This document shows positions 2,950 to 58,094 of a DNA stretch of 64,000 nucleotides, piece by piece. Made by a program: the position numbers and the translations under genes. Below the pieces are notes generated by a model. The model was not told the origin of the DNA. It searched no databases and saw nothing but the letters and a program-made list of their open reading frames with translations. Position 1 is the first letter of the stretch. The number at the start of each line of letters is the position of its first letter. Source of the DNA: an uncultured Bacteroidales bacterium (GTDB lineage: Bacteria > Bacteroidota > Bacteroidia > Bacteroidales > UBA10428); assembly GCA_963790105.1 (NCBI GenBank), contig CAWBNI010000042.1, positions 27,235-91,234 on the forward strand. Reading direction: 5' to 3'.

Positions 2950-2978
2950 GTGAGAGTGACAAGTGACAAGTGACGAGG
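2950..2978 (+). repeat. GTGACAA-type heptamer array (GTGAGA GTGACAA GTGACAA GTGACGA GG) starting 7 nt after the adaptor stop codon; followed by hairpin ATCCCT-gtt-AGGGAT at 2987-3001
   Basis: Read directly from the sequence. Same word family as arrays at 19822, 44878, 47543 and 56989. Confidence 0.8.
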
Positions 2979-3140
2979 AAGATCGAATCCCTGTTAGGGA
3001 TACACTGTTGGTAGAAAACAAGACGGGAATGCCTCAAATAATCCCTTGGCGGTACGTTGCAGGCCCTGAAAAGGAATCAGGTTAGTTGCAATAGTTTACA
3101 CAATGTGTTAATTTCAGGTCTATTATAGGTTAGTAATCAG

Positions 3141-3168
3141 CCCCTGCCAAAACAGGGGTTGTTTTTTT
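3141..3168 (+). terminator. Rho-independent-type terminator (CCCCTG-ccaaaa-CAGGGG followed by TTGTTTTTTT)
   Basis: 6-bp GC stem, 6-nt loop and T-rich tail ~200 nt downstream of the adaptor gene. The 2944-3168 stretch would be a long 3' UTR or a separate small transcript. Confidence 0.6.
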
Positions 3169-3415
3169 GCCCCAGATAAGAATTTTTAATTATTTAACAA
3201 AATAATTAACAAAAATTGTAACAAAATTGTTGAAAAACCTGTTAATAAGTAGTAAATTTACTTTAATTAATATTTCGTAAGCATTTGTTAACTTGACTTA
3301 TGAAGTTGTTTATCAAACGGAATGGTAACTTGTTCATGTTGAGTTCTTAATTTTCGCAGCATTTATTAATTGAGGTAACATTTACGGGCAATCTACTAAC
3401 TAAAACCTTATTAAT

Positions 3416-8071: not shown

Positions 8072-8786
8072 ATGAACCGGATTAATTGCCTCATTGTGGA
8101 TGATGAACCTGCTGCACTTGAAGTGCTGGAGCATTTTATAGGCAAGGTATTCTTTCTGCATCTGATCAAAAAATGTCAGCATGCCATTGAGGCCATGCAA
8201 ATCCTGGAAGAAAATAAGATCGACCTGTCTGTTTCTGGATATTAATATGCCGGATGTTGACGGGCTTCAACTGCTAAAAAGCATCAAATCAAAGCCGCTT
8301 GTTATTTTCACCACCGGTTACAAGGAATATGCCCTGAACGGATACGAGTTTGATATTGTTGATTTTCTGCTTAAGCCATTTGATTTTGAAAGGTTTCTGC
8401 GGGCTGTAAACAAAGCCAATAACCAGATCTCAAAATCCTTACGATTGCCGGTAGCGCATGCAGAAGCTCGCAGCAGTTCATCTTTGTCAAGGCTGATTAT
8501 AAACTGGTGAAAATTAACGTGGATGATATCCTGTTTGTGGAAGGACTGAAGGATTACATCAAGATATTCACAAAACAAAAGCTGATCCTGACGCTTATGT
8601 CAATGACAGCCATTGAGGAAAAGCTTCCCGCCGGATGAGTTTTTCAGGCTTCACCGGTCCTATATCATTTCTCTCAGCAAGATTGATTCGGTAAGCCGGC
8701 ACCGGGTGATTATCGGCGAAAAATTCATTCCCATCAGCGTGCCGTACAGGGAAAAGTTTTATTTGATTATTGATAAGAGTATTTAG
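8072..8786 (+). pseudogene. Two-component response regulator, LytTR DNA-binding family (frame interrupted about 3 times)
   Basis: Receiver domain (MNRINCLIVDDEPAALEVL... then FLDINMPDVDGLQLL...FTTGYKEYALNGYEFDIVDFLLKPF) and LytTR domain (INVDDILFVEGLKDYIKIFT..., FFRLHRSYIISLSKIDSV...) are spread over three frames. Stop TAG at 8784-8786. Confidence 0.8.
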
Positions 8787-8787
8787 A

Positions 8788-9072
8788 TTAGGAGGCTTAG
8801 GGGCTTAGGAGCTTAGGGGCTTAGGAGCTAGGCTGCTAGGCTACTAGGCTATAGGCTTCAGGAGTACGGCTGTTTGATATTGCCATTGTTCGGTGCTAAT
8901 ATTCACTTAAAATCAGCGTTCGCATATTCAAAGTTATTTTTAGCAAAATCAACACCGAACAATGGCAACACCAAATACTCATACTCCGAAGATTTCTAGC
9001 TCACAAATCCCTAAGCCCCTAAGCCCCTAGAAGCCCCTAAGCCCCTAAGCCCCTAGAAGCCCTAAGCCCCTA
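8788..9072. repeat. ~285-bp imperfect palindrome filling the whole convergent intergenic region: (GGGGCTTA/GGCTNCTA)n arm, inner 16-bp perfect inverted repeat, (TAAGCCCC)n arm
   Basis: Left arm 8788-8863 is G-rich on +. Right arm 9008-9072 is its reverse-complement word family and overlaps the lpdA stop. Inner inverted repeat TTGCCATTGTTCGGTG (8880-8895) / CACCGAACAATGGCAA (8953-8968) with 57-nt spacer. Confidence 0.85.
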
Positions 9073-10461
9073 AATATGAATCACCTCCCCGTACGCTGCG
9101 GCGGCGGCTTCCATCACGGCTTCCGACATGGTGGGATGCGGGTGGATGGATTTGATAATTTCGTGTCCTGTTGTTTCAAGCTTTTTGGCTATTACCATTT
9201 CTGCTATCATTTCAGTGACATTATCGCCAATGAAATGAGCGCCCAGCAATTCGCCGTATTTTGAATCGAAGATCAGCTTCACAAAGCCTTCCTTGTTTCC
9301 TGCGGCAGTTGCTTTGCCGGATGCTGTATACGGGAACTTGCCAACCTTGATATCATAGCCGGCTTCTTTTGCTGCTTTCTCGGTATATCCAACCGAAGCA
9401 ATTTCGGGAGATGTATAGGTACATCCGGGAATGTTTTTGTAATTAATGGGTTCCGGATCCTTGCCTGCAATTTTTTCCACACACACAATACCTTCTGCCG
9501 ATGCAACATGTGCCAGTGCCGGACCGGGTACAATATCACCGATGGCATAAACACCCTTTACATTCGTCCTGTAAAACTCATCAACCTTTATTTTTCCCTT
9601 ATCCGTTTCAATGCCCAGTTTCTCAAGTCCAAGATCTTCGAGGTTAGCGGTGATTCCAACGGCAGAAAGAACGATTTCAGCCTCCCTTTTCTCAACACCC
9701 TTTGGTGTCTTAATGGTTACCTGGCAGACTTTTCCGGTTGTGTCAACAGATTCCACCGAGGAGGAAGTCATCACTTCCATTCCGGCCTTTTTAAAAGATC
9801 TTTCAAGCTGTTTTGATACTTCTTCATCTTCCACAGGAACAATCGTCGGAAGAAATTCAACCAGGGTCACTTTGGTGCCAATTGAGTTGTAAAAATGGGC
9901 AAACTCGCTGCCTATGGCTCCTGAGCCGACCACCACCATGGATTGTGGCATCGTTTTGAGGGTCATGGCTTCGCGGTACCCGATAATTTTTTTCCCGTCC
10001 TGTTTCAGATTGGGTAATTCCTTTGACCGGGCTCCGGTAGCAATTATAATATGTTTGGCAGTAATTTTTGTTTCCTTTCCATCCTTGTCTGTAACGGAAA
10101 CGGTCTGGTTATCCACCAGTCGCCCGTAACCCGGGATCTGGTCAATTTTGTTCTTTTTAAAAAGAAACTGAACTCCCTTGCTCATTCCATCAGCAACACC
10201 GCGGCTGCGTTCAACCATTTTTTGTACATCAGCATGTGCTGAAGAATCAAACGTAATACCATAATCTCCTGCATGTTTCATGTAATTAAAAACCTGGGCA
10301 CTCTTAAGCAGGGCTTTTGTAGGGATGCAACCCCAGTTTAAGCATATGCCGCCAATTTCAGCTTTTTCCACTACACCCGTTTTCAGACCTAATTGTGATG
10401 CACGAATGGCCGCCACATAACCTCCCGGGCCGCTGCCAATTATAACAAGATCATAGTTCAT
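9070..10461 (-). CDS. lpdA: Dihydrolipoyl dehydrogenase (E3 component)
   Basis: Intact 463-aa ORF with FAD motif GSGPGGYVAAIRA, redox-active disulfide GGICLNWGCIPTK, NAD motif GSGAIGSEFA and C-terminal HPHPTMSEA dimer-interface motif. Confidence 0.95.
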   Translation of the reverse strand: MNYDLVIIGSGPGGYVAAIRASQLGLKTGVVEKAEIGGICLNWGCIPTKALLKSAQVFNYMKHAGDYGITFDSSAHADVQKMVERSRGVADGMSKGVQFLFKKNKIDQIPGYGRLVDNQTVSVTDKDGKETKITAKHIIIATGARSKELPNLKQDGKKIIGYREAMTLKTMPQSMVVVGSGAIGSEFAHFYNSIGTKVTLVEFLPTIVPVEDEEVSKQLERSFKKAGMEVMTSSSVESVDTTGKVCQVTIKTPKGVEKREAEIVLSAVGITANLEDLGLEKLGIETDKGKIKVDEFYRTNVKGVYAIGDIVPGPALAHVASAEGIVCVEKIAGKDPEPINYKNIPGCTYTSPEIASVGYTEKAAKEAGYDIKVGKFPYTASGKATAAGNKEGFVKLIFDSKYGELLGAHFIGDNVTEMIAEMVIAKKLETTGHEIIKSIHPHPTMSEAVMEAAAAAYGEVIHI

Positions 10462-12821: not shown

Positions 12822-12926
12822 ATGGTGGTCAAAGTTAAAAATTTATATGGGAATAGCCAGTAACCGCTTTCGTTTCATATGAACATTCTGAAGGTTTGTT
12901 TTTCGTATTATTGCAAAAAGGTTCAC

Positions 12927-13634
12927 ATGATCCAGCTTGTCCTTACCGGTGATGGTTCACATACCCTGTACATTCCTGAATTGAATGAACATTATCATTC
13001 AACTTACGGTGCATTAACTGAATCGCTTCATGTTTTTATCCGGAGCGGCCTGGATTGTTTTGCCGGCAGCCGCGAGATCTCAATTTTTGAAACCGGATTT
13101 GGAACGGGACTGAATGCACTTCTGACAGCGTTAAGTGCAATGAGGTCGGGCATGAAGGTATGGTATTTTGCCGTTGAGAAGTATCCTGTTGATCCAGAGA
13201 TAGTGAAACAGCTTAATTACCCTCATCTCCTGAAGGATGCTGAAATTGACGCTGAAGCATTATTTAATGCTATTCATGAGGCCGACTGGGAAACCATGAC
13301 TGAAATCCATCCCTGTTTTCATCTGAAAAAGATGAAAGGGGATATGTGCAGTTTTGTTCCGGATGGCAGCTATGACCTGGTTTATTTTGATGCTTTCGCG
13401 CCGGACAAGCAACCGGAAATATGGACGGGTGAGATCATGCAACGCCTTGTTTCATCGATGAAACCTGGCGGTATCTTTACCACATACTGCGTGAAAGGAT
13501 CAGTGAAACGAATTTTGAGAGATTGCGGCCTCACTTTGGAAAAACTGCCCGGCCCGCCAGGGAAGAGGGAGATTCTTAGGGGGACGAGGGACCAGGGACT
13601 AGGGACTAGGGACGAGGGACGAGGGACAGGATAG
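12927..13634 (+). CDS. mnmD: tRNA (mnm5s2U34) methyltransferase MnmD-like (MnmC methyltransferase-domain homologue)
   Basis: Inner ATG at 12927 gives MIQLVLTGDGSHTLYIPELNEHYHSTYGALTES... and SAM fold ETGFGTGLN, YFDAFAP...PEIW. The last ~18 codons (RGTRDQGLGTRDEGRGTG) are translated from the GGGACGA array. Confidence 0.65.
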   Translation: MIQLVLTGDGSHTLYIPELNEHYHSTYGALTESLHVFIRSGLDCFAGSREISIFETGFGTGLNALLTALSAMRSGMKVWYFAVEKYPVDPEIVKQLNYPHLLKDAEIDAEALFNAIHEADWETMTEIHPCFHLKKMKGDMCSFVPDGSYDLVYFDAFAPDKQPEIWTGEIMQRLVSSMKPGGIFTTYCVKGSVKRILRDCGLTLEKLPGPPGKREILRGTRDQGLGTRDEGRGTG

Positions 13635-13824
13635 GAAGAATGAACAATGTGCCGAAGGCATCCCTTCGGGAGAAAACGATTTGCTAGATGTGCCAATGTG
13701 CCAATGTGCTAATATGCCAATGTGCTAATTTTTTTCTATGTTTCTTTGTGCCATGCTAGTGCCTTTGTGGCAAAACTGCAGAACTGCAGAACCAGACTGC
13801 ATAACTGCAGAACCGTATAACTGC
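13579..13824 (+). repeat. Composite mosaic element: (GGGACNA)7 array, hairpin element hp1, (GTGCCAAT)5 array, conserved box GTGCCTTTGTGGCAAAACTGCA, (AACTGCAG)n array
   Basis: GGGACNA array 13579-13630. hp1 13638-13684, with stem CCGAAGG-catc-CCTTCGG at 13652-13669. GTGCCAAT array 13688-13729. Box 13759-13780. AACTGCAG array 13773-13824. Confidence 0.85.
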
Positions 13825-13848
13825 CGGACCTGATAGGTATAAATAATT

Positions 13849-13879
13849 AAACCCCAAAGATTTGCATCCTTTGGGGTTT
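13849..13879. terminator. Bidirectional terminator hairpin AAACCCCAAAG-atttgcatc-CTTTGGGGTTT downstream of rpmH
   Basis: 11-bp perfect stem flanked by A-run/T-run, 25 nt downstream of the rpmH stop (minus strand). Confidence 0.65.
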
Positions 13880-13903
13880 AATTTATATTTTAATTAAAAT
13901 TAT

Positions 13904-14059
13904 TTACTTACTTGCTATTTCGTCGGAAACAGTCAGTCTTTTTCTTCCCTTGGCACGGCGGCTGGATAGTACTTTGCGTCCATTGGCTGTGGACATTCTT
14001 TCCCTGAATCCGTGTTTATTGCGCCTCTTTCTGTTGGATGGCTGATATGTTCTTTTCAT
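13904..14059 (-). CDS. rpmH: 50S ribosomal protein L34
   Basis: Not in the ORF track (51 aa). My translation is [51 protein letters not shown], the universally conserved L34 sequence pattern. Confidence 0.95.
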
Positions 14060-14097
14060 TGCTGTGCTTTTTTATGTATGCTGATAAAATCGGAATG

Positions 14098-14128
14098 CAA
14101 AGGTAAATAATTTTATTTTTCATCCAAA
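14098..14128 (-). promoter_or_regulatory. Candidate Bacteroidota-type promoter of rpmH (TTTG -33 / TACCTTTG -7)
   Basis: Minus strand reads TTTG (14128-14125), 19-nt spacer, TACCTTTG (14105-14098). This fits the published Bacteroides consensus TTTG-N19-21-TAnnTTTG, ~40 nt upstream of the ATG. Confidence 0.45.
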
Positions 14129-14135
14129 TATTTTT

Positions 14136-14300
14136 GGCAATTGTTTCTTGGCAATGTGCTATTATGCTAATGTGCCAATGTGCCAATCTGCCAATGTGCC
14201 ATATGTGCCAATGTGCCAATGTTCATGAATGCCAATGCGCTAATCATATACTATCGTCTCCTTGTGCCTTAGTGCCTTTGTGGCAAAACTGCAAAACTGC
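14136..14300 (+). repeat. Composite element: (GTGCCAAT/GTGCTAAT)n array, box GTGCCTTTGTGGCAAAACTGCA, AACTGCA units. A direct copy of the module on the other side of rpmH
   Basis: Array ~14136-14245, box 14272-14293, AAACTGCAAAACTGCGG to ~14300. Same order and orientation as 13688-13824. Confidence 0.8.
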
Positions 14301-14311
14301 GGACCAGTCCC

Positions 14312-16298
14312 TCACTGGTTCTTACAGGACGTGCGGTAATAGGTAAAAGCATTATCGGGACAGCCAAGATAACCTGAATATATATTATAGAACGAAAACC
14401 AATGAGATTCCGGAATTGTGATTTCCTGCCAGGTTGTGGTACCCACAAGGCGCATTCCCTCTTTCTTTTCATTTGCTATCCCGAAGGGCATCGTAAATCC
14501 GTCCTCAACTCCTGTCCAGCGGAATTTTAACAGTATGCTGTCATTTACATGTTTGTAAACATACGTCAGAACAGGAAGCTGGGTATCGAAAAGGTACTTG
14601 TCGAAAAAAGGTGTATAAGTCAGTTCCTGTATACTCATTTACAAACCGGATAAAATCATAGGAGTCGACTGTGTGATAGCGAAATTTCATCCAGAAATCA
14701 TGGATGATGCCGAAAAATACAGAATCATTATTGATTGTGCACCGGAGGCAGTGAAGCATCATGGCTCCCTTGGTGTAGACATCATTGCTGGCAAAGGTAT
14801 TTTCGTTCACATTACGGTTTTGCACGATGGGCCATATATTGAATATATATTTGGCTTTTTTCGGTCAGCTCATACATATATTCCTCCTTGCCGAAGCGGT
14901 TTTCAATGAACATGAGCTCGGCATAAGTGGCAAATCCCTCATGGATCCATATGTCGGCCATATCTGCTGCAGTTACGGAGTTTCCCCACCATTCATGGGC
15001 TGCTTCATGAACGATTATATAATCGTAGATCATGTTCCTGTACTCAGTACCGTTGTTTTTTTCAAAGCCATTTCCATAGGCAATGGCCGACTGGTGTTCC
15101 ATTCCTTCATAGGATGATTCCACAAGTCCAAACCCGTCGCGATTAAAGGGATAAGGACCAAAGGCCTTATCGTAAAAGCTGACTACATCACGCGTTTGCT
15201 TGAAGTGTTCTTTTGCCTCGATCGAGGTTATAACTCAGCACATTATAGTCCAATCTTACCGTGTCATCCGGATCTTTCAGCGTATCACTGAATGCCACAT
15301 ATTTTCCCACGTAAAAAGTGACATTGTAGTTGTTGATGGGATAGCTGACAAACCATGAAAATTTATCATTGTGTGAATCAACGTGGGTCATTTTTCTCAG
15401 GTTCCCGTTTGATACAGCCTGGTACCCCGAAGGTATGGTCAGATTGATCAGCATGGAATCGGGTTTGTCGCTGAGATGATCCTTGGTGGGCCACCAACTG
15501 CTGGCACCGAGGTGTTCACAGGCTACGCCCAGCCAAAGGTCTTTGTTTTTATCCTTTTGCCAGACAAATCCTCCATCCCAGGGCGGGTTCGGTGCATTCA
15601 TGCGGCTTTCCCTTATAGGCAATACGGATAACCTGGTCGTTGCCGGGCTTTAAAATCTCAGGGAAATCAATGAAAATAGCATTAAACTCCCTTCGATAGG
15701 GTAAGGTAATACCATTCCAGGTTATGCCCGTAACAGTATATCTGTCAAAAAGATCGATCTGAATGGTTTTTGACGGCTGTACAACATGAAAATAGATTGT
15801 ATTGCTTCCCTGAATTTTTTTGCCCCTGGGTATTATCTTTACATCGAGATCATAAAAATAAACGTCAAAACAGGTTCTTTCCGGCCGGAGTGCTCCGCGC
15901 AAGGTGTCAGCCCTTGTGTATTTCGGCCGGTAATTTAATTCAGGATATACTTTCTGATCCTTGTAAAACTGTTTTAGCAACAGGTCACGGACAAACTTGG
16001 GATCGCAAAGAAAACTTACTAACTGCCTGTTTTCATTTGATCCGGCAGCATGGGCAAGATTCAGATCTTCACAGGCCCCTTCTACATCACCCATGTACAG
16101 TTTTGAAATACCACGGTTATTCAGGCAGGAGGCATATCCAGGAGCGAGCTTTAACAGGGTATCCATCTCTTCAATCACCCCAATATAATCCGCCTGATCA
16201 AACCGCTTTAAGCTACTCTGCCAGATGGAATCTTCTGTATTTTGCGCCTGAATCGTAAGAGCAGACAACAAAAGGATGCTGATCCAAATTTTTTTCAT
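14312..16298 (-). pseudogene. M1-family zinc metallopeptidase (aminopeptidase N-like) with N-terminal TPR-like region; frame interrupted at least 4 times
   Basis: Five overlapping ORF fragments on the minus strand. Signal peptide MKKIWISILLLSALTIQAQ. Zincin motif HEAAHEWWGN...WIHEGFATY in fragment 14812-15123. GAMEN-region and C-terminal fragments follow in other frames. Confidence 0.8.
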
Positions 16299-18171: not shown

Positions 18172-19827
18172 ATGAAAATTGCACTCGCTCAACTGAACTA
18201 TACCATTGGAGCATTTGATGAAAATGTAAATAAGATAATATCGGCAATCCGCAGGGCCCGGCACGACAAAGCAGCCCTGGTTGTATTTTCTGAACTGGCT
18301 GTTTGTGGTTATCCTCCCCTGGACCTTCTCGAACACAGAAGCTTTATTGAGAAATGCGATGAGTCAATAATTAAGATTGCTGCCGAATGCCGTGATATTG
18401 CAGCCATTGTTGGCGGTCCATCGGTTAATCCCAATCCATCCGGCAAAAATCTGTACAATTCAGCTTATTTTCTGGCCGATGGTTCCATTCAAAAGGTGAT
18501 TAATAAAACCCTTCTGCCCACCTATGATATCTTTGATGAATACCGTTATTTTGAGCAGAATTCCGATTTCAGTCTGATCCAATACCAGGGTTACAATATT
18601 GCTGTCACTATTTGTGAAGACCTCTGGTTTCGCCAGCCGATCCTCACAGGATTCGGAAAGAACAGGTTATATTCAGTTTGCCCGATGGACAAACTTTCTT
18701 CGCTTGGTCCCGACTTTGTGATCAATCTTTCTGCATCTCCTTTTTCATGCAACCAGGGTGAGATCAAATCGGAGATCCTAATTGACAATGCCAGGCAATA
18801 CAGGATCCCAATTTATTATGTGAACCAGATCGGAGCCCATGCCGAACTTATTTTCGATGGCGGGTCCATGGCCGTGGATGCAAGGGGTGAAATAAAAAGA
18901 ATGAAACTTTTCGAAGAGGATTTCCAGGTTGTTGATACGGAAGATACCTCCCGGGGCGAAGGATTTTCGGTATATATTGATGAGGATAATGATGTTGAAC
19001 TGATTTACCATGCCCTGGTACTGGGGATCAGGGATTACTTTGGCAAGATGGGCCTGAAATCGGGAGTACTTGGCTTATCAGGAGGTATTGATTCGGCCGT
19101 TACGCTGGCCCTGGCAAGTGAAGCGCTGGGTGCATCTTTTATGAGGGTTTTACTGATGCCTTCGCAATATTCTTCCGGTCATTCAATTACCGACGCGGTG
19201 AAACTGGCAGAAAAACTGGGTGTCCGTTACGATATAGTGGATATCCGTTCGATCTACAGCGCATTTACCGAATCGCTTTCTGACTTGTTTAAAGGCAGGC
19301 AGCCTGACCTGAGCGAAGAAAATATCCAGGCCCGTATACGTGGGAACCTGCTCATGGCAGTTTCGAACAAATTCGGAAATATTCTGCTGAACACATCCAA
19401 CAAAAGTGAAGCAGCCGTGGGATATGGCACATTGTATGGCGACATGAGCGGCGGATTGTCTGTTCTGGGAGATGTATACAAAACCGATGTTTACCGCCTG
19501 GCGGCCTACATTAACCGCAATGAAGAAATTATTCCGCTGAACACGATCATCAAGCCACCTTCCGCTGAATTAAGGCCCGACCAAAAGGATTCTGATTCTC
19601 TCCCGGAATACGATATTCTGGATAAGATCCTGTTCAATTATATCGAATTAAAAAAATCAGTTGCAGAGATCATCCAGTTGGGAATCGATGAACGGGTTGT
19701 GGTAAAAACCATTAAGATGGTGAACCAGAATGAATACAAAAGGTACCAGACTCCACCGATACTGCGTGTTTCATCAAAAGCTTTCGGATCAGGCAGGGTG
19801 ATGCCTCTGGTTGCCAAATACGAGTGA
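18172..19827 (+). CDS. nadE: Glutamine-dependent NAD+ synthetase
   Basis: N-terminal nitrilase/CN-hydrolase domain (MKIALAQLNYTIG...FSELAVCGYPP...ICEDLW) plus C-terminal NAD synthetase domain (GLSGGIDSAV...). The stop TGA lies inside the first GTGACAA repeat unit. Confidence 0.9.
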   Translation: MKIALAQLNYTIGAFDENVNKIISAIRRARHDKAALVVFSELAVCGYPPLDLLEHRSFIEKCDESIIKIAAECRDIAAIVGGPSVNPNPSGKNLYNSAYFLADGSIQKVINKTLLPTYDIFDEYRYFEQNSDFSLIQYQGYNIAVTICEDLWFRQPILTGFGKNRLYSVCPMDKLSSLGPDFVINLSASPFSCNQGEIKSEILIDNARQYRIPIYYVNQIGAHAELIFDGGSMAVDARGEIKRMKLFEEDFQVVDTEDTSRGEGFSVYIDEDNDVELIYHALVLGIRDYFGKMGLKSGVLGLSGGIDSAVTLALASEALGASFMRVLLMPSQYSSGHSITDAVKLAEKLGVRYDIVDIRSIYSAFTESLSDLFKGRQPDLSEENIQARIRGNLLMAVSNKFGNILLNTSNKSEAAVGYGTLYGDMSGGLSVLGDVYKTDVYRLAAYINRNEEIIPLNTIIKPPSAELRPDQKDSDSLPEYDILDKILFNYIELKKSVAEIIQLGIDERVVVKTIKMVNQNEYKRYQTPPILRVSSKAFGSGRVMPLVAKYE

Positions 19828-19926
19828 CAAGGGACGGGGACAAGGGACAGAATTGCACTCAGAGACAGGATATTCTGTAACCCCTACCCTGCCGCGCTTG
19901 TCCCTCTGTCCCTCGTCCCTCGTCAC
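19822..19926. repeat. Inverted heptamer arms bridging convergent nadE and recQ stop codons
   Basis: Left arm GAGTGACAAGGGACGGGGACAAGGGACAG (19822-19850). Right arm CTTGTCCCTCTGTCCCTCGTCCCTCGTCAC (19897-19926) is its reverse-complement word family. 46-nt spacer. Both stop codons are the TGA of a GTGAC unit. Confidence 0.85.
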
Positions 19927-21833
19927 TTCTTCGACACCGCCAGTCGCATTTCTTCGTTCAGTTTCAATTCATCATTATCCAGCAGCCATTGCAGTACCTC
20001 TATCACTTTGTCGCGATGAACTGCAACCCGGTCAAATAATTCATCAGGAGATAAGGGTTCAAGATTAAGTACTGCCAGTATTTCTTCGCGTATGAGGTTA
20101 AATTCCTCCTGTCGGAGGACCGATTCTTTTTTTATCCTGCAGATATCGCATTCACCACAGGGTTCGGACCCGGGCTCACCGAAATATTCCAGCAGGGTTT
20201 GGCTCCTGCATTTGTCTGTTGATGAGGCATATTGCAACATTGCCTTAGCCCTTTCGGTATATCGTTCCCTCCTGGTCTGGAAATTTTCCCTTGAGATATA
20301 AATCGCCTTTTCATCCAGTCTTTCCTCAAAGAAAATAACCATGGGGGAGCGCTTCTGCGGGATATAGCTGATCACACCCAGCGCGACAAGCTTGTTAAGG
20401 TATTGTTTTACTACCTCCAGATCCACATTGGCTCTTTTGGCCAGCTGGATTTCATCAATTGCAGAATATTCGGTAAAGATACCGGTGTACGACCGAAGGA
20501 GGAGCTTGATAAATGCATCGAATGGAGAATTGGAAACCTGGAAGCGGTAAAGATCGTCGCGGTTAAGCAAAAATTTAATCCGGCTGGGATTATTAATTTC
20601 CTCTGTCACTTCAAGATATCCTTCCAGCTCAAGAATTTTCAGACTGCTGAAGGAGGTAAACGGGGAAAGACGGTAAGTGCGGGCAAATTCATTGTGATTA
20701 AAATCAAAAGACATCCCCTTTCCCCCGCCTACTGGGATTTGAAGGTAATTCCCCAGGGCCGAATACGTGCTTTTGATGGTTTGCATATCCGGAAAATTGG
20801 CGATGATCCGCTGGTTAACAGTGAGTATATCCGAAGCGGAATACAGGAGGATGGCAAATGCTTTCCTGCCATCACGGCCTGCCCGTCCTGCTTCCTGGAA
20901 ATAGGCTTCCGGAGAGTCCGGCATATCCACATGGATCACAAACCTGACATCGGCTTTGTCGATTCCCATTCCAAAAGCATTGGTGGCCACAATCACCCGT
21001 ATCTTACCCGTGGTCCAGTTTTGCTGCACCTCATTCCGCACCGGATGTTCCAAACCCGCGTTATAATAGGAAGCGGAGATACCTTCCCGCGTCATGGTTT
21101 TAGCGATCTCGATACTTTTTCTCCTGCTCCTCACATAAACAATACCGCTTCCCTTCAGCTTTCTTACCATATCCAGCACATCGCGGTCCTTGTTTTCAGT
21201 TGTCTTCACCGCGTAAATAAGGTTTTCCCTCCTGAAACTTGATTTCAGCAGATTTTTTGCTTTAAACTGCAGCTTAAGCTGGATATCCTCAATTACGGGT
21301 CTGGTTGCAGTGGCCGTTAGTGCCAGCACGGGTACCTCCGGATGAAATTGCCTGAGATCGGAGATTTTGAGATAGGAAGGTCTGAAATCATAACCCCATT
21401 GTGAAATACAATGTGCCTCATCTACGGTGATCAGGTTAACCGGCATATCCAGGAACCGTGTTCTGAACAGTTCAGTGGAAAGCCGTTCAGGTGAAACATA
21501 CAGGAATTTGTAGCCCCCGTAAAGGCAATTATTCAGAGCAACATCAATTTCATCACGGGTACATCCCGAATGTACGGCTACTGCCTTGATCTCCAATTTC
21601 TTCAGATTTTCAACCTGATCCTTCATCAGGGCAATCAACGGGGTGACCACCAGGCATAAGCCGGGCATTGTCATCGCAGGTACCTGAAATGTAAGTGATT
21701 TCCCCCCGCCGGTAGGCATAAGTCCCAATGTATCTTTTCCGGCAAGTACTGAACGGATGATTTCTTCCTGCAGAGGTCTGAAGGAGTTGAATCCCCAGTA
21801 TTTCCTAAGGGTATCGTGATAGTCGGACATCAA
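19923..21833 (-). CDS. recQ: ATP-dependent DNA helicase, RecQ family
   Basis: Intact 636-aa ORF with helicase motifs TGGGKS, DEAHCISQWGYDFRP, SAT-type LTATAT, ATNAFGMGIDK, QEAGRAGRDG and a RecQ C-terminal Zn-binding cysteine cluster (CR...C..CD.C). Confidence 0.9.
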   Translation of the reverse strand: MMSDYHDTLRKYWGFNSFRPLQEEIIRSVLAGKDTLGLMPTGGGKSLTFQVPAMTMPGLCLVVTPLIALMKDQVENLKKLEIKAVAVHSGCTRDEIDVALNNCLYGGYKFLYVSPERLSTELFRTRFLDMPVNLITVDEAHCISQWGYDFRPSYLKISDLRQFHPEVPVLALTATATRPVIEDIQLKLQFKAKNLLKSSFRRENLIYAVKTTENKDRDVLDMVRKLKGSGIVYVRSRRKSIEIAKTMTREGISASYYNAGLEHPVRNEVQQNWTTGKIRVIVATNAFGMGIDKADVRFVIHVDMPDSPEAYFQEAGRAGRDGRKAFAILLYSASDILTVNQRIIANFPDMQTIKSTYSALGNYLQIPVGGGKGMSFDFNHNEFARTYRLSPFTSFSSLKILELEGYLEVTEEINNPSRIKFLLNRDDLYRFQVSNSPFDAFIKLLLRSYTGIFTEYSAIDEIQLAKRANVDLEVVKQYLNKLVALGVISYIPQKRSPMVIFFEERLDEKAIYISRENFQTRRERYTERAKAMLQYASSTDKCRSQTLLEYFGEPGSEPCGECDICRIKKESVLRQEEFNLIREEILAVLNLEPLSPDELFDRVAVHRDKVIEVLQWLLDNDELKLNEEMRLAVSKK

Positions 21834-34896: not shown

Positions 34897-35069
34897 TTGT
34901 ATATGTTTTCAGGCTAAAATTACTGATTAATAACGTATAAATACCCCCGCTTATTCTATTTAAATTAACAGGTAGGTGTTAATTATGGAACAGCAATTAT
35001 GATTTTTAATCAGTATTTTTGAAATTTAGTAATAAATCTTTTCCGACAATCATGGTTGAAGAATCAACA

Positions 35070-35145
35070 CCGGTACCAGAAGAAATAACTCCGGATACCG
35101 GAAGAAATAGCACCGATACCAGAAGAAACTGCACCTGTACCGGCT
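35070..35145 (+). repeat. 21-nt (7-codon) tandem repeat x3.5 immediately upstream of ftsE, encoding P-x-P-E-E-x-x units
   Basis: Units are CCGGTACCAGAAGAAATAACT (35070-35090), CCGGATACCGGAAGAAATAGCA (35091-35112, 22 nt), CCGATACCAGAAGAAACTGCA (35113-35133) and CCTGTACCGGCT... An ATG at 35052 lies upstream. Confidence 0.8.
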
Positions 35146-35845: not shown

Positions 35846-36341
35846 AGGAGGGACAAGGGACGAGGGACGAGGGACGAGCAGGAAATATCCTTTTAGAGGA
35901 TATCTGGCAGTAGAAGAAGTTACGGGGGATAAGGAATTCATCTGATATTATTTCCAGTTATACAATCCATTAACGATTTTGAATTTATTGGAATTACCAG
36001 AGGGTAATTTTAAAGTGGAAGGTCTTTATGTAGGGACGAGGGACGAGGGACAAGGAAGTTTTGCAGTTTTGCAGTTACTAGCGGTTCTGCGATCATGCAG
36101 TCGTGCAGTCGTGGGCAGATAAACTGTTCTGCGGTTCTGCAGTTAAGGTGCCGGAAAATGCGCGTAGCGCATTAATTATTGTAGAATGTGCAGTATGCTG
36201 CAGTTTTGAATGGTGTAGTCGAGACAGCCTCGGAGAGGCCTGATTTCAATAACCGTGGTGTACCCACGGAGAATGAGTGCGTTGTCTCTCAGCCCGAGGG
36301 CTGACAAAAATCGTAAATCGTATATCGTAAATCGTAAATCA
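35846..36341 (+). repeat. Composite mosaic region with arrays, hairpins and hp2 element A
   Basis: GGGACGA array 35846-35882. Hairpins ATATCC..GGATAT (~35886-35903) and ATTACC-agag-GGTAAT (~35993-36008). Second GGGACGA array 36030-36055. TGCAG arrays 36058-36144. Hairpin AATGCGC-gta-GCGCATT 36157-36173. hp2 copy A 36227-36269 (GCCTC-gga-GAGGC, TGATTTCAATAACC, CCGTGG-tgtac-CCACGG). AATCGTA array 36307-36341, ending 7 nt before the MORN gene ATG. Confidence 0.85.
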
Positions 36342-37022: not shown

Positions 37023-37228
37023 AGTTCTGCGGTTCTGCAGTTCTGCAGTTCTGCGGTTATGCGGTTATGCAGTTCTGCAGTTCTGCAGTCGTGCAGGTCG
37101 GGCCTCGAAGAGGCCTCGATCTCAATAACCGGGTGTGAAAACCCACGGAAAATCGTAAATTGCAATCGGCAAATCGTAAATAGCAAATCTAAATCGTAAA
37201 TGCAATCGTAAATCGTAAATCGTAAATC
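37023..37228 (+). repeat. Composite mosaic element: (GTTCTGCA)n, hp2 element B, (AATCGTA)n. A direct copy of the module upstream of the MORN gene
   Basis: GTTCTGCR octamers 37023-37098. hp2 copy B 37101-37148 (GGCCTC-gaa-GAGGCC, TCGATCTCAATAACC, imperfect second stem). AATCGTA-type units 37150-37228, ending 5 nt before the GT4 ATG. Confidence 0.85.
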
Positions 37229-37233
37229 CCTTT

Positions 37234-38434
37234 ATGTCCTCCGTTTGCATGATATCCTCCCTCCACGGTCTCTATGATGACCGTATTTATTGGAAGGAGG
37301 CCCTGTCATTAAAAAATCATGGATATGACGTGATCCATGTTACTACAGGAGACAAAGATCTGGATTTTATCTCTGAACATGGAATCCGGTTAATCCAGGT
37401 AAAAAAGAAAAGGTATTTCCGGAATCCTTATCTGGACATACTGTTCCGCAAAATTACTTTCCGGCCGGATGTATATAAAAAGATGTTTCGGATTTGCGCA
37501 GCTCTGCATGCAGATGTTTATCATTATCATGATATTCAGATAAACCGTTTCAGCAGAAAATTAAAGCAGCTTTCGCATTCCCCGGCAGTGATCTATGATG
37601 TGCATGAGGACTTTTCCGATCTTATCCTTTCCGGCAGGCCATTAAACAGTCCGGTGAGATGGTTTTTCCAGCTGTATGCGGACTGGCTCAACCGGTGGGA
37701 GCTTTCCCGCGCTTCCTCCTGTGATTTTATTATCGCTGCTGTTGATCATATTTGTCAGAAATTTGAAAAGATGGCAGCACACGGGAAAGGCAGCGGTGAT
37801 TTATAATTATACAACCCTGCAGCCTGATACGATAACGCCGGCAGAAAAAAAGAAATACGATGCCATTTATTGCGGGCAGATAAATCCGGTGAGAGGGGGA
37901 ATGGAGATTGCACAGGCAGTGGTTCTTGCAAGGAAAGTGATTCCCGGGATTAAGGTTTTGCTGCTGGGTCCGGTTCCGGATGCGCAATATAAAAAGAAAC
38001 TGCTTGATGTGATTGAAAAAAACAATCTTCAGGACAATCTGATTCTTTATGGAAATGTGCCTTATAGTGAAATCGAAACATTCTACCAGGATAGCCGGAT
38101 AGGACTTGGAATTTTCATGCCTGTGAGCATATTTTATTATGGAATTCAGATTAAGACATTTGAATATATGGCGTTTGGTCTGCCTGTTATTTGCAGTAAC
38201 TTTGGAACCATTGATCAGATCATTCGTGAAACAGGATCAGGAATTACAGTTGATCCCCGTTCTCCTGAAGCCATCAGCAACGCCCTGATTACGCTCCTTA
38301 CAGATAAAGAATTATACAAAACCTGCAGCACAAACGGAAGACTTGCAGTAAAGAATAAATACAACTGGAAAACCGAGGAAGCCAAATTGCTTGATATTTA
38401 TAGGGGACTGTCACGTTTGCACGGAAATGCTTAG
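37234..38434 (+). pseudogene. Glycosyltransferase family 4 (GT-B fold), one frame interruption
   Basis: The N-terminal half (ORF 37234-37806) and the C-terminal half with the EYMAFGLPVICSN...G motif (ORF 37676-38434) overlap in different frames. Confidence 0.75.
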
Positions 38435-40053: not shown

Positions 40054-40086
40054 CTCAATCAACAATCAACTATCAACAATCAACTA
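40054..40086 (+). repeat. (CAATCAAC)n degenerate octamer array
   Basis: CTCAATCAACAATCAACTATCAACAATCAACTA. A related single unit lies at 40001-40010, a hairpin ATCCT-gttagcg-AGGAT at ~39961-39977, and the same word family occurs at 50283-50312 and (reverse) 57916-57946. Confidence 0.75.
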
Positions 40087-43274: not shown

Positions 43275-44895
43275 ATGGAAATCTGTAAACAAAATATACC
43301 CTTTATAGGATCATCCATTCCCCTTTCAGATGATAAACATCACAATAAAACCTGCCGGAATTTCCGTGACAGGTTTTATTTGTTTTTGATCCTGTGCCTG
43401 ACGGGATTGCCGTTTGTTTCAGCCCAGGATTCCTTGCTGGTTCAGCATTTCACGGTTCCTGATACAACCTGTACGGTGGATGCAGCCATGCAATTGATAG
43501 AACAGCAAACCGGCCTGTCTTTTTCATATAATACGGATATCATCAACAAGAAGAAAGTCATCACCCTGCATGGCGGACCGGAATGAATTGATCCACATTC
43601 TTGAAAATACCTTTAACGATCCGCAGTTAAACTTCAGCATCATTGGACGCCATATTGTGGTTTACCAGACCCAGCGGACCCTCTCTGCCAATCCCGAAAG
43701 GCCCAGGGATTCGGTGTATTTTTTTGAGATCAGGGGAAGGGTGCTTGATAAATCGGATAAGCAACCCCTGCCTTATTCCAGTATTTATCTTTCAGGCAAA
43801 GCAATAGGAACTGTTACAAACGATAACGGGCAATTCCAGTTAAAACTGCCTTCGAAATACCTGGCTGATACGCTTATTGTTTCATGTATCGGATATAAGC
43901 GGATCAAGGCGCCGGTTTCAAGCTTCCTGAGTGAAGAAAAGGATTACCTGTTAAAACCTGATGTGATATCAATCCAGGAAGTGATCATCCGGAAAATCAG
44001 TCCGGTTAATCTGCTTCAGTCTGCCACAGAAGCGGTGTTTGAGAATTATCCCGACAAGCCGGCCATTCTCAATTCATTTTACAGGGAAATGATCAAAAAG
44101 GGAAGCCGTTATATGATGGTTTCAGAAGCTATTCTTGAAAACTATAAACCGGGCTATGACAGGACAGCAGCTTCTGACCAGGTTAAAATATCTGAAGGGA
44201 AGAAAAAGCCAGGATCCGGGAACAAAGGATACAGTGATCCTGAAACTGAAAGCCGGGCTGAATACAATGCTTCAGCTGGATGTGGTGAAAAACATGCCCG
44301 ATTTCTTAACCGGCGAAAATACGCAGGATTATGATTACAAAATGTCGGATATCGTTGTGGATAATGGAAGGGAACAATATGCCATTGAATTTTCACCTAA
44401 AAAAGGCTCGGAAAATATATTTTATAAGGGACGAATATTGCTCGATGTAAGGAATCTTGCTTTTACCTGGGTAGAATTTTATGTCGATCCGGAAAAGCTT
44501 GACATGGCAACGAAGAATTTTATTGTAAAGAAGCCTTCCTATATGAAGGTGAAAGTTCTGAAAGCCAGTTATAAAATTGCTTTCCGGTTGACAGGCAACA
44601 AGTATTACCTGCACATGATTGAATGTGAAACGGAATTCAGGATCAAGGACAGACATCAGATTCTCAGGATCGGTATATCATACAGGACTTGGAAATGGTT
44701 GTTACAGAAATTGATACCATAAATGCTGCCCGGTTCAAATTCAGGGAAACTGCCCGGTTAAATGAGTTTTTTACCGACCAGCTGGGCGCTTATGATGAGT
44801 CCTTCTGGGGGGAATATAATTTCATCAGTCCGGAAGAATCTTTGGAGCAGGCACTGGTTAAGCTGGCGAAGAAGAAAGTGACGAGTGACGAGTGA
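43275..44895 (+). pseudogene. STN-domain + CarboxypepD_reg-like protein lacking a TonB-dependent plug/barrel (about 3 frame interruptions)
   Basis: STN-like signalling domain (VDAAMQLIEQQTGLSFSYNTDIINKKKVIT...), then IRGRVLDKSDKQPLPYSSIYLSGKAIGTVTNDNGQFQLKL, then the same C-terminal region as 40204-41513. Total ~540 aa, too short for a SusC/FecA barrel. The last codons (KKVTSDE) come from the GTGACGA array. Confidence 0.6.
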
Positions 44896-45117
44896 CAAGT
44901 GACAATGTGCTAATGTGGCGAATGTGGTAGGATGTGCAAATGTGCTAATCGTGCCAATGCCATGTGCCAAAGGGCAATGTGCAAACTATGCCAACGTGCA
45001 AAACTGCAAGACTCATAAACTATATTTCTTATGTGCCATGGCAATGCCTTTGTGGCAATAACTGCAAAACTGCATAACTTCATAATCATAATTCATAATT
45101 CATAATTCTTAATTTCT
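44878..45117 (+). repeat. Continuous 240-bp chain of drifting short tandem arrays: GTGACGA, GTGACAA, TGTGCTAA/GTGCCAA, GTGCAAAAC, box, TGCAAAAC/TGCATAAC, CATAATT
   Basis: GTGACGA/GTGACAA 44878-44905. ATGTGC/GTGCCAA units 44904-45000. 10-bp palindrome TGCCATGGCA 45034-45043. Box TGCCTTTGTGGCAATAACTGCA 45045-45066. CATAATT units 45079-45117. Confidence 0.85.
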
Positions 45118-46354: not shown

Positions 46355-47543
46355 ATGGAGCCATTCAGTCGCGTTATCCTGAAATCGGGGAAAGAACAAT
46401 CAATCAAGCGCCTTCATCCCTGGATTTTTTCAGGTGCCATAAAGAAAATCGAGGGAAAGCCGGCTGAAGGTGACACTGTGGAAATATTTTCCGGCACCGG
46501 AGAATACCTGGCAACCGGTCATTACCAGATAGGATCCATTGCAGTGCGGATTTATTCTTTTCACCAGGTCACTACCGGATTTTGATTTCTGGAGAATGAA
46601 ATTCAAGTCTGCCTTGGATTTGCGCACTACACTCGGACTCACTGATAATAAAGACACCAATGTATACCGGCTTGTAAACGGTGAAGGTGATGGCATGCCC
46701 GGTTTTATTGTCGATTATTACAATGGCATCGTGGTGATGCAAATGCATTCCGTTGGCATGTACCTTTTGAGGGAACAGCTGGCAGAGGTAATAAAGGCCT
46801 TGTATGGCGACAAATTACTGTCCATTTATGATAAAAGCGAGGGTACAATTCCTGTGAAAGCCGGGTTAGGGATCAAAAACAAGTTCATTTACGGTGATCA
46901 GTCCGTTATTGAGATCATTGAAAACGGCTGCCGTTTTTCAATCGATGTTATTTCCGGACAAAAAACAGGATTTTTTATTGATCAGCGTGAAAACCGCGAA
47001 CTTCTTACCCGGTACATCAAAGGCAAAGATGTGCTCAATATGTTTTGCTATACCGGAGGATTTTCGGTTTATGCCTTGCATGGCGGCGCTGCTTCGGTTG
47101 ATTCTGTTGATAGTTCGGCCCAGGCCGTGGAACTTACCAAACAGAATGTTAGCCTGAATCCTGAAGGTACCGGCAGGCATCAGACCTATATTGCCGATGC
47201 GTTTTCCTTTTTAAATGACATCGCTGATAAATATGATGTGATCATTCTCGATCCCCCTGCGTTTGCCAAGCATACCGATGCACTCGACAATGCACTGATG
47301 GCTTATAAACGGCTTAATGCCAAAGCAATTGAACAGATCAGGCCGGGAGGGATCATTTTTACATTTTCCTGTTCCCAGGTAGTGAACAGGGAGAATTTCA
47401 GGCGGTCGGTTTTTGTAGCCGCAGCCAATACCGGGCGCAATGTCAGGATACTTCATCAGCTTGTCCAGCCACCGGATCATCCCGTCAGCATCTTTCATCC
47501 CGAGGGGGAATACCTGAAGGGACTTGTGCTGCAGGTGGAATAG
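46355..47543 (+). pseudogene. rlmI: Class I SAM-dependent rRNA (cytosine-C5) methyltransferase, RlmI-like (one frame interruption)
   Basis: N-terminal PUA-like part (MEPFSRVILKSGKEQSIKRLHPWIFSGAI...) in ORF 46355-46585. Methyltransferase core (VLNMFCYTGGFSVYA..., ILDPPAF...) in ORF 46539-47543. Confidence 0.75.
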
Positions 47544-51683: not shown

Positions 51684-51693
51684 TAATTAGAAA

Positions 51694-51750
51694 TTTTCAA
51701 ATCTTCAAATTTTCAAATCTTCAAATCAACAAATCAATAAATCAATAAAT
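51694..51750. repeat. (TTCAAAT / ATCAATAA)n degenerate array filling the GH115-CE15 intercistronic gap
   Basis: TTTTCAAATCTTCAAATTTTCAAATCTTCAAATCAACAAATCAATAAATCAATAAATTCA, read directly. It spans essentially the whole 67-nt gap. Confidence 0.8.
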
Positions 51751-58061: not shown

Positions 58062-58094
58062 GTTTCCTGAACGAATGCCTACAGCACACCTATT

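Follow-up and report, generated by a model that had tools for sequence, protein, structure and literature searches.

Why should the short tandem arrays at the 3' ends of genes in a stretch of Bacteroidales DNA carry their G-rich strand on the sense strand of the gene they adjoin, and is a capacity to fold into G-quadruplexes (G4s) what places them so? We addressed this question in 64,000 nt of an uncultured Bacteroidales bacterium (contig CAWBNI010000042.1), a stretch hereafter called the window, with as its focal element the heptamer array at 13579-13634(+), which in translation encodes the last 16 codons and the stop codon of a Methyltransf_30 gene. We found the strand rule to be correct and statistically strong, and the variable that discriminates between the two orientations to be G versus C, rather than G-runs, purines, stop codons or encoded hydropathy. 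While a G4 is a reasonable prediction for the focal array, it cannot account for the polarity.

To count orientations, all gene 3' ends in the window were read by hand in the sense direction, and an automated, strand-symmetric test was run in which arrays called by Tandem Repeats Finder (TRF) were paired with any open reading frame (ORF) of at least 100 aa, on either strand, whose stop codon fell within -40 to +10 of the array. This ORF-end test was model-free. The original prediction had listed 13 gene ends with the G-rich strand on the sense strand, and all 13 exist, with an array that is G>C in sense at or over the stop codon both on the plus strand (2943, 8786, 13634, 19827, 35845, 44895, 47543 and 49894) and on the minus strand (9070, 19923, 47750, 57000 and 58101). 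Pfam confirmed the genes of the HlyD family (2943), LytTR (8786), Methyltransf_30 (13634), NadE (19827), the ABC ATPase (35845) and the SAM methyltransferase (47543), as well as those of Lpd (9070), RecQ (19923) and a MORN protein (47750). Two cases lie beyond that list, at 50310(-), with TTGATAG x4.6 and GTGAATG x4, and at 51751(-), with ATTTGAAG-type octamers. Overall, 16 gene ends in the window have a tandem array at or over the stop codon, and 15 of these arrays are skewed between G and C: all 15 are G>C on the sense strand (two-sided binomial p = 6e-5, by hand), and across all window 3' ends no skewed array beside a stop was C-rich on that strand, the sixteenth end, at 37020, carrying a near-neutral GTTCTGCR octamer. 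The automated test returned 14 sense to 0 antisense (p = 1.2e-4). These cases are not fully independent, as three convergent pairs are inverted copies of one unit each, which leaves ~12 independent units. The window's array-free gene ends had no G-C skew in the first 60 nt past the stop. The picture of arrays that follow their genes has to be amended in part: they do abut gene ends, but those at 13634, 44895, 47750, 49894 and 58101 lie partly inside the ORF and encode its C-terminal tail.

Arrays were unevenly spread over the kinds of spacer, occupying 7 of 8 convergent and 0 of 8 divergent spacers in the window, and array-bearing 3' ends were more frequent at convergent (11/16) than at co-directional gene pairs (4/17; Fisher p = 0.015). 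Within the window's coding regions we found no arrays of 2.8 or more copies except in C-terminal tails. Counting non-redundant TRF arrays of period 5-9 and at least 2.8 copies, the window holds 33, or 5.2 per 10 kb, against 0.47 per 10 kb in other Bacteroidota (900 kb of NadE-homolog loci), a contrast that may be overstated, since short-read assemblies tend to break at repeats. GC content of the window is 39-48% in 2-kb windows. A replication-strand (GC-skew) cause was rejected, because the arrays at 19826-19849 and 19899-19924 lie 50 bp apart with opposite polarity, each fitting its own gene, and so was an assembly artefact, because isolate genomes (Nostoc, Zobellella, Geomonas, Thiohalocapsa) and short-read assemblies alike carry the same arrays. 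The principal arrays and the spacers that fold are collected in Table 1.

Table 1. Tandem arrays at and near gene ends, the focal gene, and predicted folding of array-bearing spacers; positions are those of the window.
Feature	Position	Strand	Remarks
(AGTGACA)x2.9	2955-2974	+	begins 12 nt past the stop (2943) of the HlyD-family gene; G4 impossible
(TTAGGRGC)x5 + (CTAGGCTR)x4	8788-8857	+	directly past the LytTR regulator stop (8786); 5' arm of a spacer-wide hairpin
(GGGGCTTA)x8	9009-9073	-	first unit is the Lpd stop TAG; inverted partner of 8788-8829
Methyltransf_30 (MnmC-like) gene	12879-13634	+	Pfam PF05430 over aa 149-237 of 251
Focal array (GGGACNA)x7	13579-13634	+	seven G3+ tracts, 4-nt loops; closing TAG 13632-13634
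GTGACAA GGGACGG GGACAAG GGACAG	19826-19849	+	NadE stop TGA within the first unit; pairs with 19899-19924
GTGACGA GGGACGA GGGACAG AGGGACA	19899-19924	-	RecQ stop TGA within the first unit
(GGGACRA)x4.4	35848-35878	+	begins 3 nt past the ABC-ATPase stop (35845); canonical G4 motif
(AGGGACG)x3.4	36032-36055	+	in the middle of a spacer flanked by two plus-strand genes, whose sense strand is the G-rich one
(GTGACRA)x3.9	44877-44903	+	overlaps the stop 44893-44895 of a frameshifted gene; G4 impossible
GTGACAA GGGACAA GGGACTA GGGACAA	47547-47573	+	begins 4 nt past the SAM methyltransferase stop (47543)
GTGACAA GGGACAG GTGACGA GTAACAA	47752-47785	-	encodes the MORN gene's last 11 codons; inverted partner of 47547-47573
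(GAGGGGA/GAGGTGA)x6.3 over the stop 49894, then (AGTAAGG)x11.7	49853-49992	+	one C in 140 nt
(TTGATAG)x4.6, stop TAG in phase, then (GTGAATG)x4	50233-50313	-	past the glucuronyl-esterase gene
(ATTTATTG/ATTTGAAG) octamers	51691-51750	-	past the GH115 gene stop; one C in 65 nt
(GTGACGA)x2.3 then (GAGATGA)x7.7	56935-57001	-	past the stop of the 57000-57911 gene
Heptamers that degenerate in a gradient from GGGACGA through GGAACGA and TGAACAA to TGAATAG	58093-58173	-	encodes the tail of the frameshifted DUF7033 gene
LytTR-Lpd spacer	8780-9080		-133 kcal/mol, z = -9.3
NadE-RecQ spacer	19818-19932	+	-53 kcal/mol, z = -6.0
NadE-RecQ spacer	19818-19932	-	-68 kcal/mol, z = -8.8
Spacer 47541-47790	47541-47790		-89 kcal/mol, z = -6.5

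The focal array reads GGGGGACGA GGGACCA GGGACTA GGGACTA GGGACGA GGGACGA GGGACAG GA TAG, and both this sequence and the TRF call (13581-13627, period 7, 6.7 copies, 92% matches) bear out the earlier count of seven GGG tracts with 4-nt spacing at 13579-13630. The Methyltransf_30 protein ends in ...EKLPGPPGKREILRG-TRDQGLGTRDEGRGTG, i.e. ...LRG-TRDQGLGTRDEGRGTG before the stop, while its ortholog in L006, an uncultured Bacteroidales metagenome-assembled genome (MAG), is 16 aa shorter and ends in ...EKLPGPPGKREILRGIK, i.e. ...LRGIK before the stop, with (GGGACRA)x7 following it. The array is present at the Methyltransf_30 3' end in both, despite a differently arranged neighbour, rpmH.

The rule extends well beyond the window. 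We collected arrays of (GGGACNA)x4 or longer from GTDB species genomes, at least 120 loci from Acidobacteriota, Gemmatimonadota, Planctomycetota, Pseudomonadota, Chloroflexota, cyanobacteria and Bacteroidota, and found 57 sense-only to 12 antisense-only (20 both, 37 neither). Among the evaluable loci below 62% GC the ratio was 30:1, and above 62% GC it fell to 12:8, because chance ORFs are common there. TRF on these pattern-derived loci and the window yielded 387 arrays, 308 of them of period 7 and very diverse in sequence, and all skewed arrays of period 5-9 together gave 108 sense to 17 antisense. Loci that had been chosen without regard to arrays gave 15:0 (the rpmH-syntenic loci L201-L209) and 7:0 (NadE loci, skew of at least 4), and the ratios were 15:3 in the cyanobacterial and 12:2 in the Bacteroidales MAG subsets.

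What the rule depends on became apparent from the composition of arrays that, in loci below 62% GC, adjoin the stop of just one long ORF. With GGGAC units removed, G>C on the sense strand still held at 62:10, whereas A>T was just 44:29, which is not significant, and the sense-frame tail was the more hydrophilic one in 45 of 75 arrays. The rule held at 42:9 among arrays without any GGG or CCC and at 20:4 among those without any GG or CC; it likewise held at 20:1 where neither strand contains a stop triplet and at 40:2 where both strands contain equally many.

The rule is, furthermore, confined to ~40 nt from the ORF boundary and reversed further out. Counting G-rich against C-rich arrays on the ORF strand, we obtained 36:10 when the stop codon lies inside the array, 37:2 when it lies 1-10 nt upstream and 30:7 at 11-40 nt, but 16:41 at 41-100 nt and 34:54 at 101-300 nt. 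Arrays up to 60 nt upstream of start codons were C>G on the sense strand in 21:5 (loci below 55% GC), which, together with G>C at stops, means that a spacer reads ORF, G-rich ... C-rich, ORF in any gene orientation. Across phyla, the offsets of the stop codon cluster in the phase of the array (-2, +5, +12, +19), and in at least six window arrays, as in the relative L207 described below, the working stop codon is the first repeat unit. A mutational bias of transcription direction was rejected, because beyond 40 nt the skew is reversed and in 5' leaders it has the opposite sign. Shine-Dalgarno (SD) mimicry was rejected as well, judging from the units, since GAGGTGA and AAGGAG would fit the anti-SD while GTGACAA, TTGATAG and ATTTGAAG would not.

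Comparison with close relatives showed polarity to outlast the units. Congener loci were retrieved by exact look-up of the 51-aa ribosomal protein L34; exact-protein look-ups of NadE and Lpd gave no match, probably owing to start-codon choice. L201, L206 and L207, which are loci of Microflora Danica assemblies (the last being CAVQXX010000015.1, uncultured Bacteroidales bacterium MFD04716.bin.2.165), share 88-90% identity and complete synteny with the window over 20 kb, and their BLAST alignments with it break exactly at the array spacers. At the Methyltransf_30 end, where the window has (GGGACNA)x7, L201 has (GGGACTA)x2 + (GAGGTGA)x7 + GTATGGA-type units, L206 has GAGAAGT/GAGAGGT-type units and L207 has (GAGGTGA)x3, all of these arrays being C-free or C-poor on the sense strand; distant relatives have a short spacer and a normal terminator. 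The peptidase-M1 end carries 1 unit in the window, 4.6 in L201 and 0 in both L206 and L207. The NadE-RecQ spacer is array-filled over 95 nt in the window and 147, 164 and 145 nt in L201, L206 and L207; its hairpin is found in the window and L201 only (L206 z = +0.8, L207 z = -0.4), though the polarity of the arms is kept in L206 and L207 despite the lost hairpin. At the LytTR-Lpd spacer the two arms change together, from TTAGGGGC/GCCCCTAA in the window and L207 to CTAGGCTT/AAGCCTAG in L201, and the spacer folds in all four genomes (z = -10, -3.1, -7.4 and -6.0) though the arm units differ. In these comparisons units turn over quickly and arrays appear to be individually dispensable, with complementarity kept in some spacers and polarity in all.

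Between convergent genes, the strand rule gives rise to inverted arms of the same unit, and these fold into long hairpins. Among 429 arrays, same-unit pairs within 400 nt were inverted in 45 cases versus direct in 9, and in the inverted pairs the G-rich arm led 40 times and the C-rich arm 3 times (p = 3e-9). Fifteen of 37 distinct inverted pairs are flanked by a stop codon on both sides, and ~79% of all arrays are single and unpaired. The hairpins with stems of such simple sequence repeats (SSRs) have folding energies from -46 to -110 kcal/mol, and no A or U tracts flank them. A scan of 13500-14400 for intrinsic terminators, i.e. a GC-rich hairpin followed by a U tract, found none at the arrays. 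The canonical terminators of the window at 3140-3170 and 13851-13880 have the C-rich arm first, the latter being a bidirectional hairpin with z = -6.1. The SSR hairpins are like intrinsic bidirectional terminators in lying past stop codons and in that one dyad serves both convergent genes, and unlike them in their stems of 20-50 bp, in lacking flanking A/U tracts and in having the G-rich arm on the 5' side. Telomere-like healing was rejected as a source of inverted arms, because the arms stand against ORFs with unique sequence between them (e.g. 8788...9073). As a separate observation, the LytTR-Lpd spacer has a core (8880-8975) consisting of a non-repetitive inverted repeat, TTGCCATTGTTCGGTG ... 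CACCGAACAATGGCAA, nested in the SSR arms, with diverged equivalents in L201, L206 and L207.

The rule itself is not new. For the GGGAATC arrays of Xanthomonas and the GGGGA(C/T)T arrays of Nostoc PCC 7120, Rehm et al. 2015 (PLoS One, PMC4692102) reported that G-rich heptamers stand on the coding strand at stop codons and noted the opposite sense at start codons; they described the arrays as intergenic, under-represented between divergent ORFs, able to form stem-loops as inverted pairs, and varying in length and sequence between Xcc and Xac while their position is kept, and they demonstrated G4 folding by circular dichroism but found no function. The window arrays share with this class their head-to-tail build across unrelated genes (20 of the 33 have period 7 and 11 have period 8), their location in non-coding DNA and rarity between divergent ORFs, their inverted pairs and a position that outlasts the sequence. 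The G-rich strand is the coding strand within ~50 bp of the stop, overlap included (15/15 by hand, 14:0 automated, with a profile reaching to 40 nt), and the non-coding strand beside starts (21:5), the window's own 5' arrays being G-poor or neutral. They differ in their units (G[G/T]GACNA, TTAGGGGC, AGTAAGG, GAGATGA, TTGATAG and others), in the host phylum Bacteroidota, in their enrichment at convergent rather than aligned gene pairs and, above all, in that most are G4-incapable yet obey the rule: a G3+ tract in each of four or more units is present in only 3 of 18. A class defined by G4 capacity is thus too narrow for the window arrays. MacGregor 2015 (PMC4679880) described TAACTGA heptamer arrays in Beggiatoaceae, cyanobacteria and five Bacteroidetes, the last with several heptamer families per spacer; these are likewise intergenic and of fixed orientation to the adjacent ORF, but they lie forward, a few nt upstream of starts, and resemble the AAATCGT/CATAATT/CAATCAA leaders of the window rather than its stop-codon arrays. 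The window rule is a rediscovery, in a new lineage and with new units, of a published, still unexplained class, and the new leads, of moderate interest, are that the rule does not require G4 capacity, that it spans many phyla and that the hairpin arms co-vary, with the G-rich one first.

Other repeat families resemble the arrays in part. The STRR heptamers of heterocystous cyanobacteria, reportedly described by Mazel et al. in 1990, are said to be tandem, intergenic and present in many copies per genome, as in the window, and to be defined by taxon and by the cyanobacterial units CCCCAGT, TTGGTCA and CAACAGT, unlike the arrays here; to our knowledge, no polarity rule has been described for them. 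The repetitive extragenic palindromes of enterobacteria and pseudomonads (REPs, and the BIMEs they compose) are abundant at gene 3' ends, often between convergent genes, and their RNA hairpins can protect upstream mRNA; they occur dispersed, each an imperfect palindrome of ~35 bp, and owe their mobility to RAYT transposases. The window units are instead direct tandem repeats of 7-8 bp in which a palindrome arises only from two opposed arrays, so that membership of the REP/BIME family was rejected on unit structure, no RAYT search having been made. Searches of the literature for the literal units (GGGACGA and others) returned nothing relevant, and neither a 2025 tree-of-life survey of short tandem repeats nor a 2020 review of simple bacterial DNA repeats held anything on heptamer polarity.

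Most likely, the arrays are slippage-type microsatellites, mostly heptamers with some octamers, of a class of long SSRs with 5-11 bp units that has bloomed in the non-coding spacers of this genus. As to why they are polar, the account that we favour, to which we give about an even chance, is that fast-evolving slippage repeats are tolerated only when the strand leaving the ORF is G-rich and C-poor, owing to some agent that reads G against C, with some arrays recruited to supply the 5' arm of an RNA structure at the 3' end. Arrays touching a stop codon make up or overlap the first few tens of nt past the ORF, and they would be transcribed as the mRNA 3' tail, as they lie upstream of canonical terminators such as 13851-13880. 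Their orientation would then be filtered by strand-specific selection, acting on the mRNA tail or on the transcribing complex at the ORF boundary, and each single array would be filler that can be spared. Where genes converge, an array may be recruited to pair, as the 5' arm, with the array facing it, and where at least four G3 tracts are present, as at 13579-13630, an RNA G4 may form; either structure could block exonucleases or read-through transcription.

Several observations weigh against this account. Single purine arrays are unstructured and the NadE-RecQ hairpin is lost in L206 and L207, and for this reason a structural role cannot be general. We know of no factor that explains the avoidance of C on the strand leaving the ORF. 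The same geometry at starts, independent of ORF orientation, may point to a process at the level of DNA. Congeners may have the same polarity through common descent, so that their agreement is not independent evidence of selection. Finally, the pattern-derived loci are enriched for GGGAC units by construction, and the model-free calling of ORFs of at least 100 aa is noisy above 62% GC.

That the arrays are selected for a G4, formed in the sense RNA or the non-template DNA by the only strand able to fold, which terminates, stabilises the 3' end or regulates, is in our view unlikely. Three of 18 window arrays fit (G3+N1-7)x4, namely 13579-13630(+), 35848-35878(+) and 9009-9073(-), and the other 15 do not; the arm at 9009-9073(-), for which about seven C4 tracts at 9008-9072 had been given, has six C4 and two C3 tracts. 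G4Hunter reached 1.2 or more in ~8 of 18 arrays, and most window arrays fold to ~0 kcal/mol as RNA. For the three matching arrays, allowing G4s lowered the predicted energy by 5.7-8.6 kcal/mol (ViennaRNA gave -15.8 kcal/mol with and -10.1 without G4s for the focal array, a region with no significant Watson-Crick structure, z = -0.7). G4 formation in vitro has been observed for related heptamers, and a preference for four units was reported (Rehm et al. 2015, PMC4692102). As GTGAC and GGGAC units are mixed within arrays, and 58093-58173 decays from GGGACGA, some of the arrays now unable to form a G4 may descend from capable ones. Against this, the rule survives among 3'-adjacent arrays devoid of GGG/CCC or of GG/CC, and long, homogeneous arrays that form no G4 stand in the right polarity (GAGATGA x7.7, AGTAAGG x11.7 and, in L201, GAGGTGA x7); moreover, the polarity reverses beyond 40 nt, though a G4 would work anywhere in the 3' untranslated region. 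RNA G4s are also reportedly depleted and deleterious in bacteria, according to what Guo and Bartel are said to have found in 2016, which we counted against this explanation. Of the original prediction that mRNA 3' ends carry potential G4s, the sense placement and a few G4-capable arrays remain, but the counts do not support the G4 as the cause.

A non-adaptive origin in the DNA, equally unlikely in our estimation, would have the arrays born with a fixed geometry, by fold-back or template switching after a G-rich nascent strand or by extension of palindrome stems with conversion between arms, and adjoining ORFs only because these are the nearest constrained sequence. It would account for a geometry in which the G-rich strand leaves the ORF at stops and starts alike, whatever the gene's orientation, as also in Rehm et al. 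2015, for the excess of inverted over direct pairs with the G-arm first in 40 of 43, for arms that co-vary between congeners and for arrays that appear and vanish between them. It would not predict, from random birth in spacers, that arrays stand so tightly against stop codons, the first unit often sharing the phase of the stop; ~79% of arrays have no partner, the scarcity in divergent spacers (0/8 in the window; Rehm et al. 2015) suggests selection related to expression, and no specific enzyme or signature has been identified.

A more sweeping proposal, which we consider decidedly unlikely, raises the rule at any ORF boundary to a general law of bacterial SSRs with heptamer or octamer units, independent of G4s, by which arrays build termination or insulation hairpins free of U tracts and polarity is set by the asymmetry of RNA:DNA hybrids. 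Such hairpins would have a G-rich 5' arm and a pyrimidine-rich 3' arm evolving in concert, the weakness of the rC:dG hybrid beneath the 3' arm would allow the transcript to be stripped by the hairpin, and single arrays would be half-sites or decayed remnants.

Safety of translation could also impose a direction, though we hold this to be quite improbable. Stop codons contain no C, and C-rich strands encode tails rich in Pro, Leu and Ser; as slippage by 7 nt either way can shift or remove a stop, only the orientation that gives frequent stops and harmless hydrophilic tails would be tolerated. At least five window genes read into their own array, the working stops and their phase described above fit, and in L006 the antisense frame encodes LSLVPRPLSL. 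Yet arrays without stop triplets or with equal stop counts obey the rule as well (20:1 and 40:2), the sense tail was more hydrophilic in just 45 of 75 cases, A>T was not significant, and the bias is strongest 1-10 nt past the stop (37:2) and weaker in translated arrays (36:10); this sample also points towards untranslated arrays 10-40 nt past the stop being no less polar than those that overlap it.

Gating by the termination factor Rho appears very improbable. Rho reads RNA that is C-rich, G-poor and unstructured, and the C-rich complement of an array might serve as a Rho utilization (rut) site that ends antisense or read-in transcripts before the ORF, the G-rich sense RNA being invisible to Rho. 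The discriminating variable, G versus C, is what Rho reads, and the antisense units TCGTCCC, CCTTACT and TCATCTC combine a high C and low G content with periodic YC dimers, a composition that fits; most arrays, at 25-60 nt, are shorter than the ~70-80 nt of a rut site, however. Cyanobacteria lack Rho (PMC13289151) and yet obey the rule, at 15:3 here and also in Nostoc (Rehm et al. 2015), while Rho gating would favour the C-arm first at convergent genes, against the 40:3 seen for the G-arm, and C-rich arrays directly upstream of starts (21:5) would self-terminate. Hardly credible, finally, is that the repeats are binding words for a protein that recognises RNA or DNA by its sequence (CsrA-, Csp- or S1-like, or a roadblock protein), an idea that the original prediction had offered beside the G4. 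In its favour, G[G/T]GACNA recurs at many window gene ends and GGGACNA in many phyla, and MacGregor 2015 (PMC4679880) suggested that a protein binds TAACTGA arrays. Against it, the window alone has at least eight unrelated units that follow the rule, heptamers of very diverse sequence make up 308 of the 387 arrays from the pattern-derived loci and the window, and congeners gain and lose arrays and swap units at one gene end (GGGACNA, GAGGTGA and GAGAAGT; at another, TTAGGGGC and CTAGGCTT) with the same polarity.

The coding-strand rule at stop codons has gone without an explanation since 2015 and has been treated as a G4 phenomenon of Xanthomonas and Nostoc. As it is seen in Bacteroidota and in the sampled Acidobacteriota, Gemmatimonadota, Planctomycetota, Pseudomonadota and cyanobacteria, and survives complete replacement of the unit, the question shifts from the role of G4s to the identity of whatever distinguishes G from C in the 40 nt next to an ORF boundary. 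The ~10x array density of this genus and its co-varying convergent SSR arms offer a compact system for tests of termination, insulation or stabilisation. In practice, such arrays routinely rewrite C-terminal tails and stop codons and break short-read assemblies.

Some further observations concern the genes and spacers around the arrays. In the distant relatives L202, L204, L205 and L209, NadE and RecQ converge with overlapping or directly adjoining ends and have neither spacer nor terminator, while in the SSR-rich genus a spacer of 95-164 nt, largely of tandem arrays, is inserted (19828-19922 in the window). At least 21 contigs in public assemblies encode an identical L34 protein (rpmH, 13904-14059(-) in the window), and its Bacteroidetes-type promoter region (TACCTTTGCATTCCG) is 98% conserved among congeners, which the flanking arrays are not. 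The genes ending at 8786, 44895 and 58101 are frameshifted, and genes split over 2-3 frames comprise those of the LytTR response regulator (8181-8786), a peptidase M1 (14312-15622), a glycosyltransferase (37234-38434), a carboxypeptidase-regulatory-like protein (43570-44895) and DUF7033 (58101-59325); L206 is likewise fragmented in frameshifted genes. These splits are likely indel errors of a long-read consensus rather than biology, with pseudogenes as the alternative.

The spacers contain other repeated elements. Identical 22-mers GTGCCGAAGGCATCCCTTCGGG occur at 13649-13670 and 50040-50061, with a variant near 47586-47610, each with a 7-bp hairpin and no U tract; they lie past G-rich heptamers, are preceded by GAACAAT-like heptamers and followed by AATGTGC octamers, an arrangement that looks like a dispersed spacer module. 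A second pair of identical 22-mers, GTGCCTTTGTGGCAAAACTGCA, flanks rpmH on both sides in the same orientation (13759-13780 and 14272-14293) and leads into GCAGAACT/GCAAAACT octamers, with looser variants near 45045 and 47667. A scan of the 64-kb window with Rfam 15 at the gathering threshold returned 0 matches, and a tRNA scan of the same DNA found none. A conserved two-hairpin element, GCCTCGRAGAGGCC ... TCAATAACCG ... CCACGG, which has no Rfam match, is present at 36222-36275 and 37096-37150, and in L201 and L207 it lies between the arrays and the rpmH stop, a different locus from the window copies. Two octamer families are mid-spacer, have near-zero G-C skew and stand in either orientation relative to the upstream gene, namely the AATGTGCC family (13688-13729, 14152-14222, 44899-44959 and 50102-50164) and the GCAGAACT/GCAAAACT/GCAGTCGT family (13770-13824, 36057-36144, 37023-37089, 47717-47751 and 56805-56924). 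A-rich, G-poor heptamers (AAATCGT, CATAATT, CAATCAA) occupy 5' leaders at 36308-36340, 37150-37228, 45073-45114 and 40056-40084, the AAATCGT arrays ending 8 and 5 nt ahead of the ATGs at 36349 and 37234. A recurring order of spacer elements runs from the stop through G-rich heptamers, a small hairpin, AATGTGCC octamers, GCAGAACT octamers and A-rich heptamers to the next start. Lastly, a 21-nt tandem repeat (GAAGAAACAACACCGGTACCA, 4 copies) at 35058-35141 lies in a divergent spacer just upstream of the ABC-ATPase start at 35153, and may be an in-frame N-terminal extension or a regulatory repeat.

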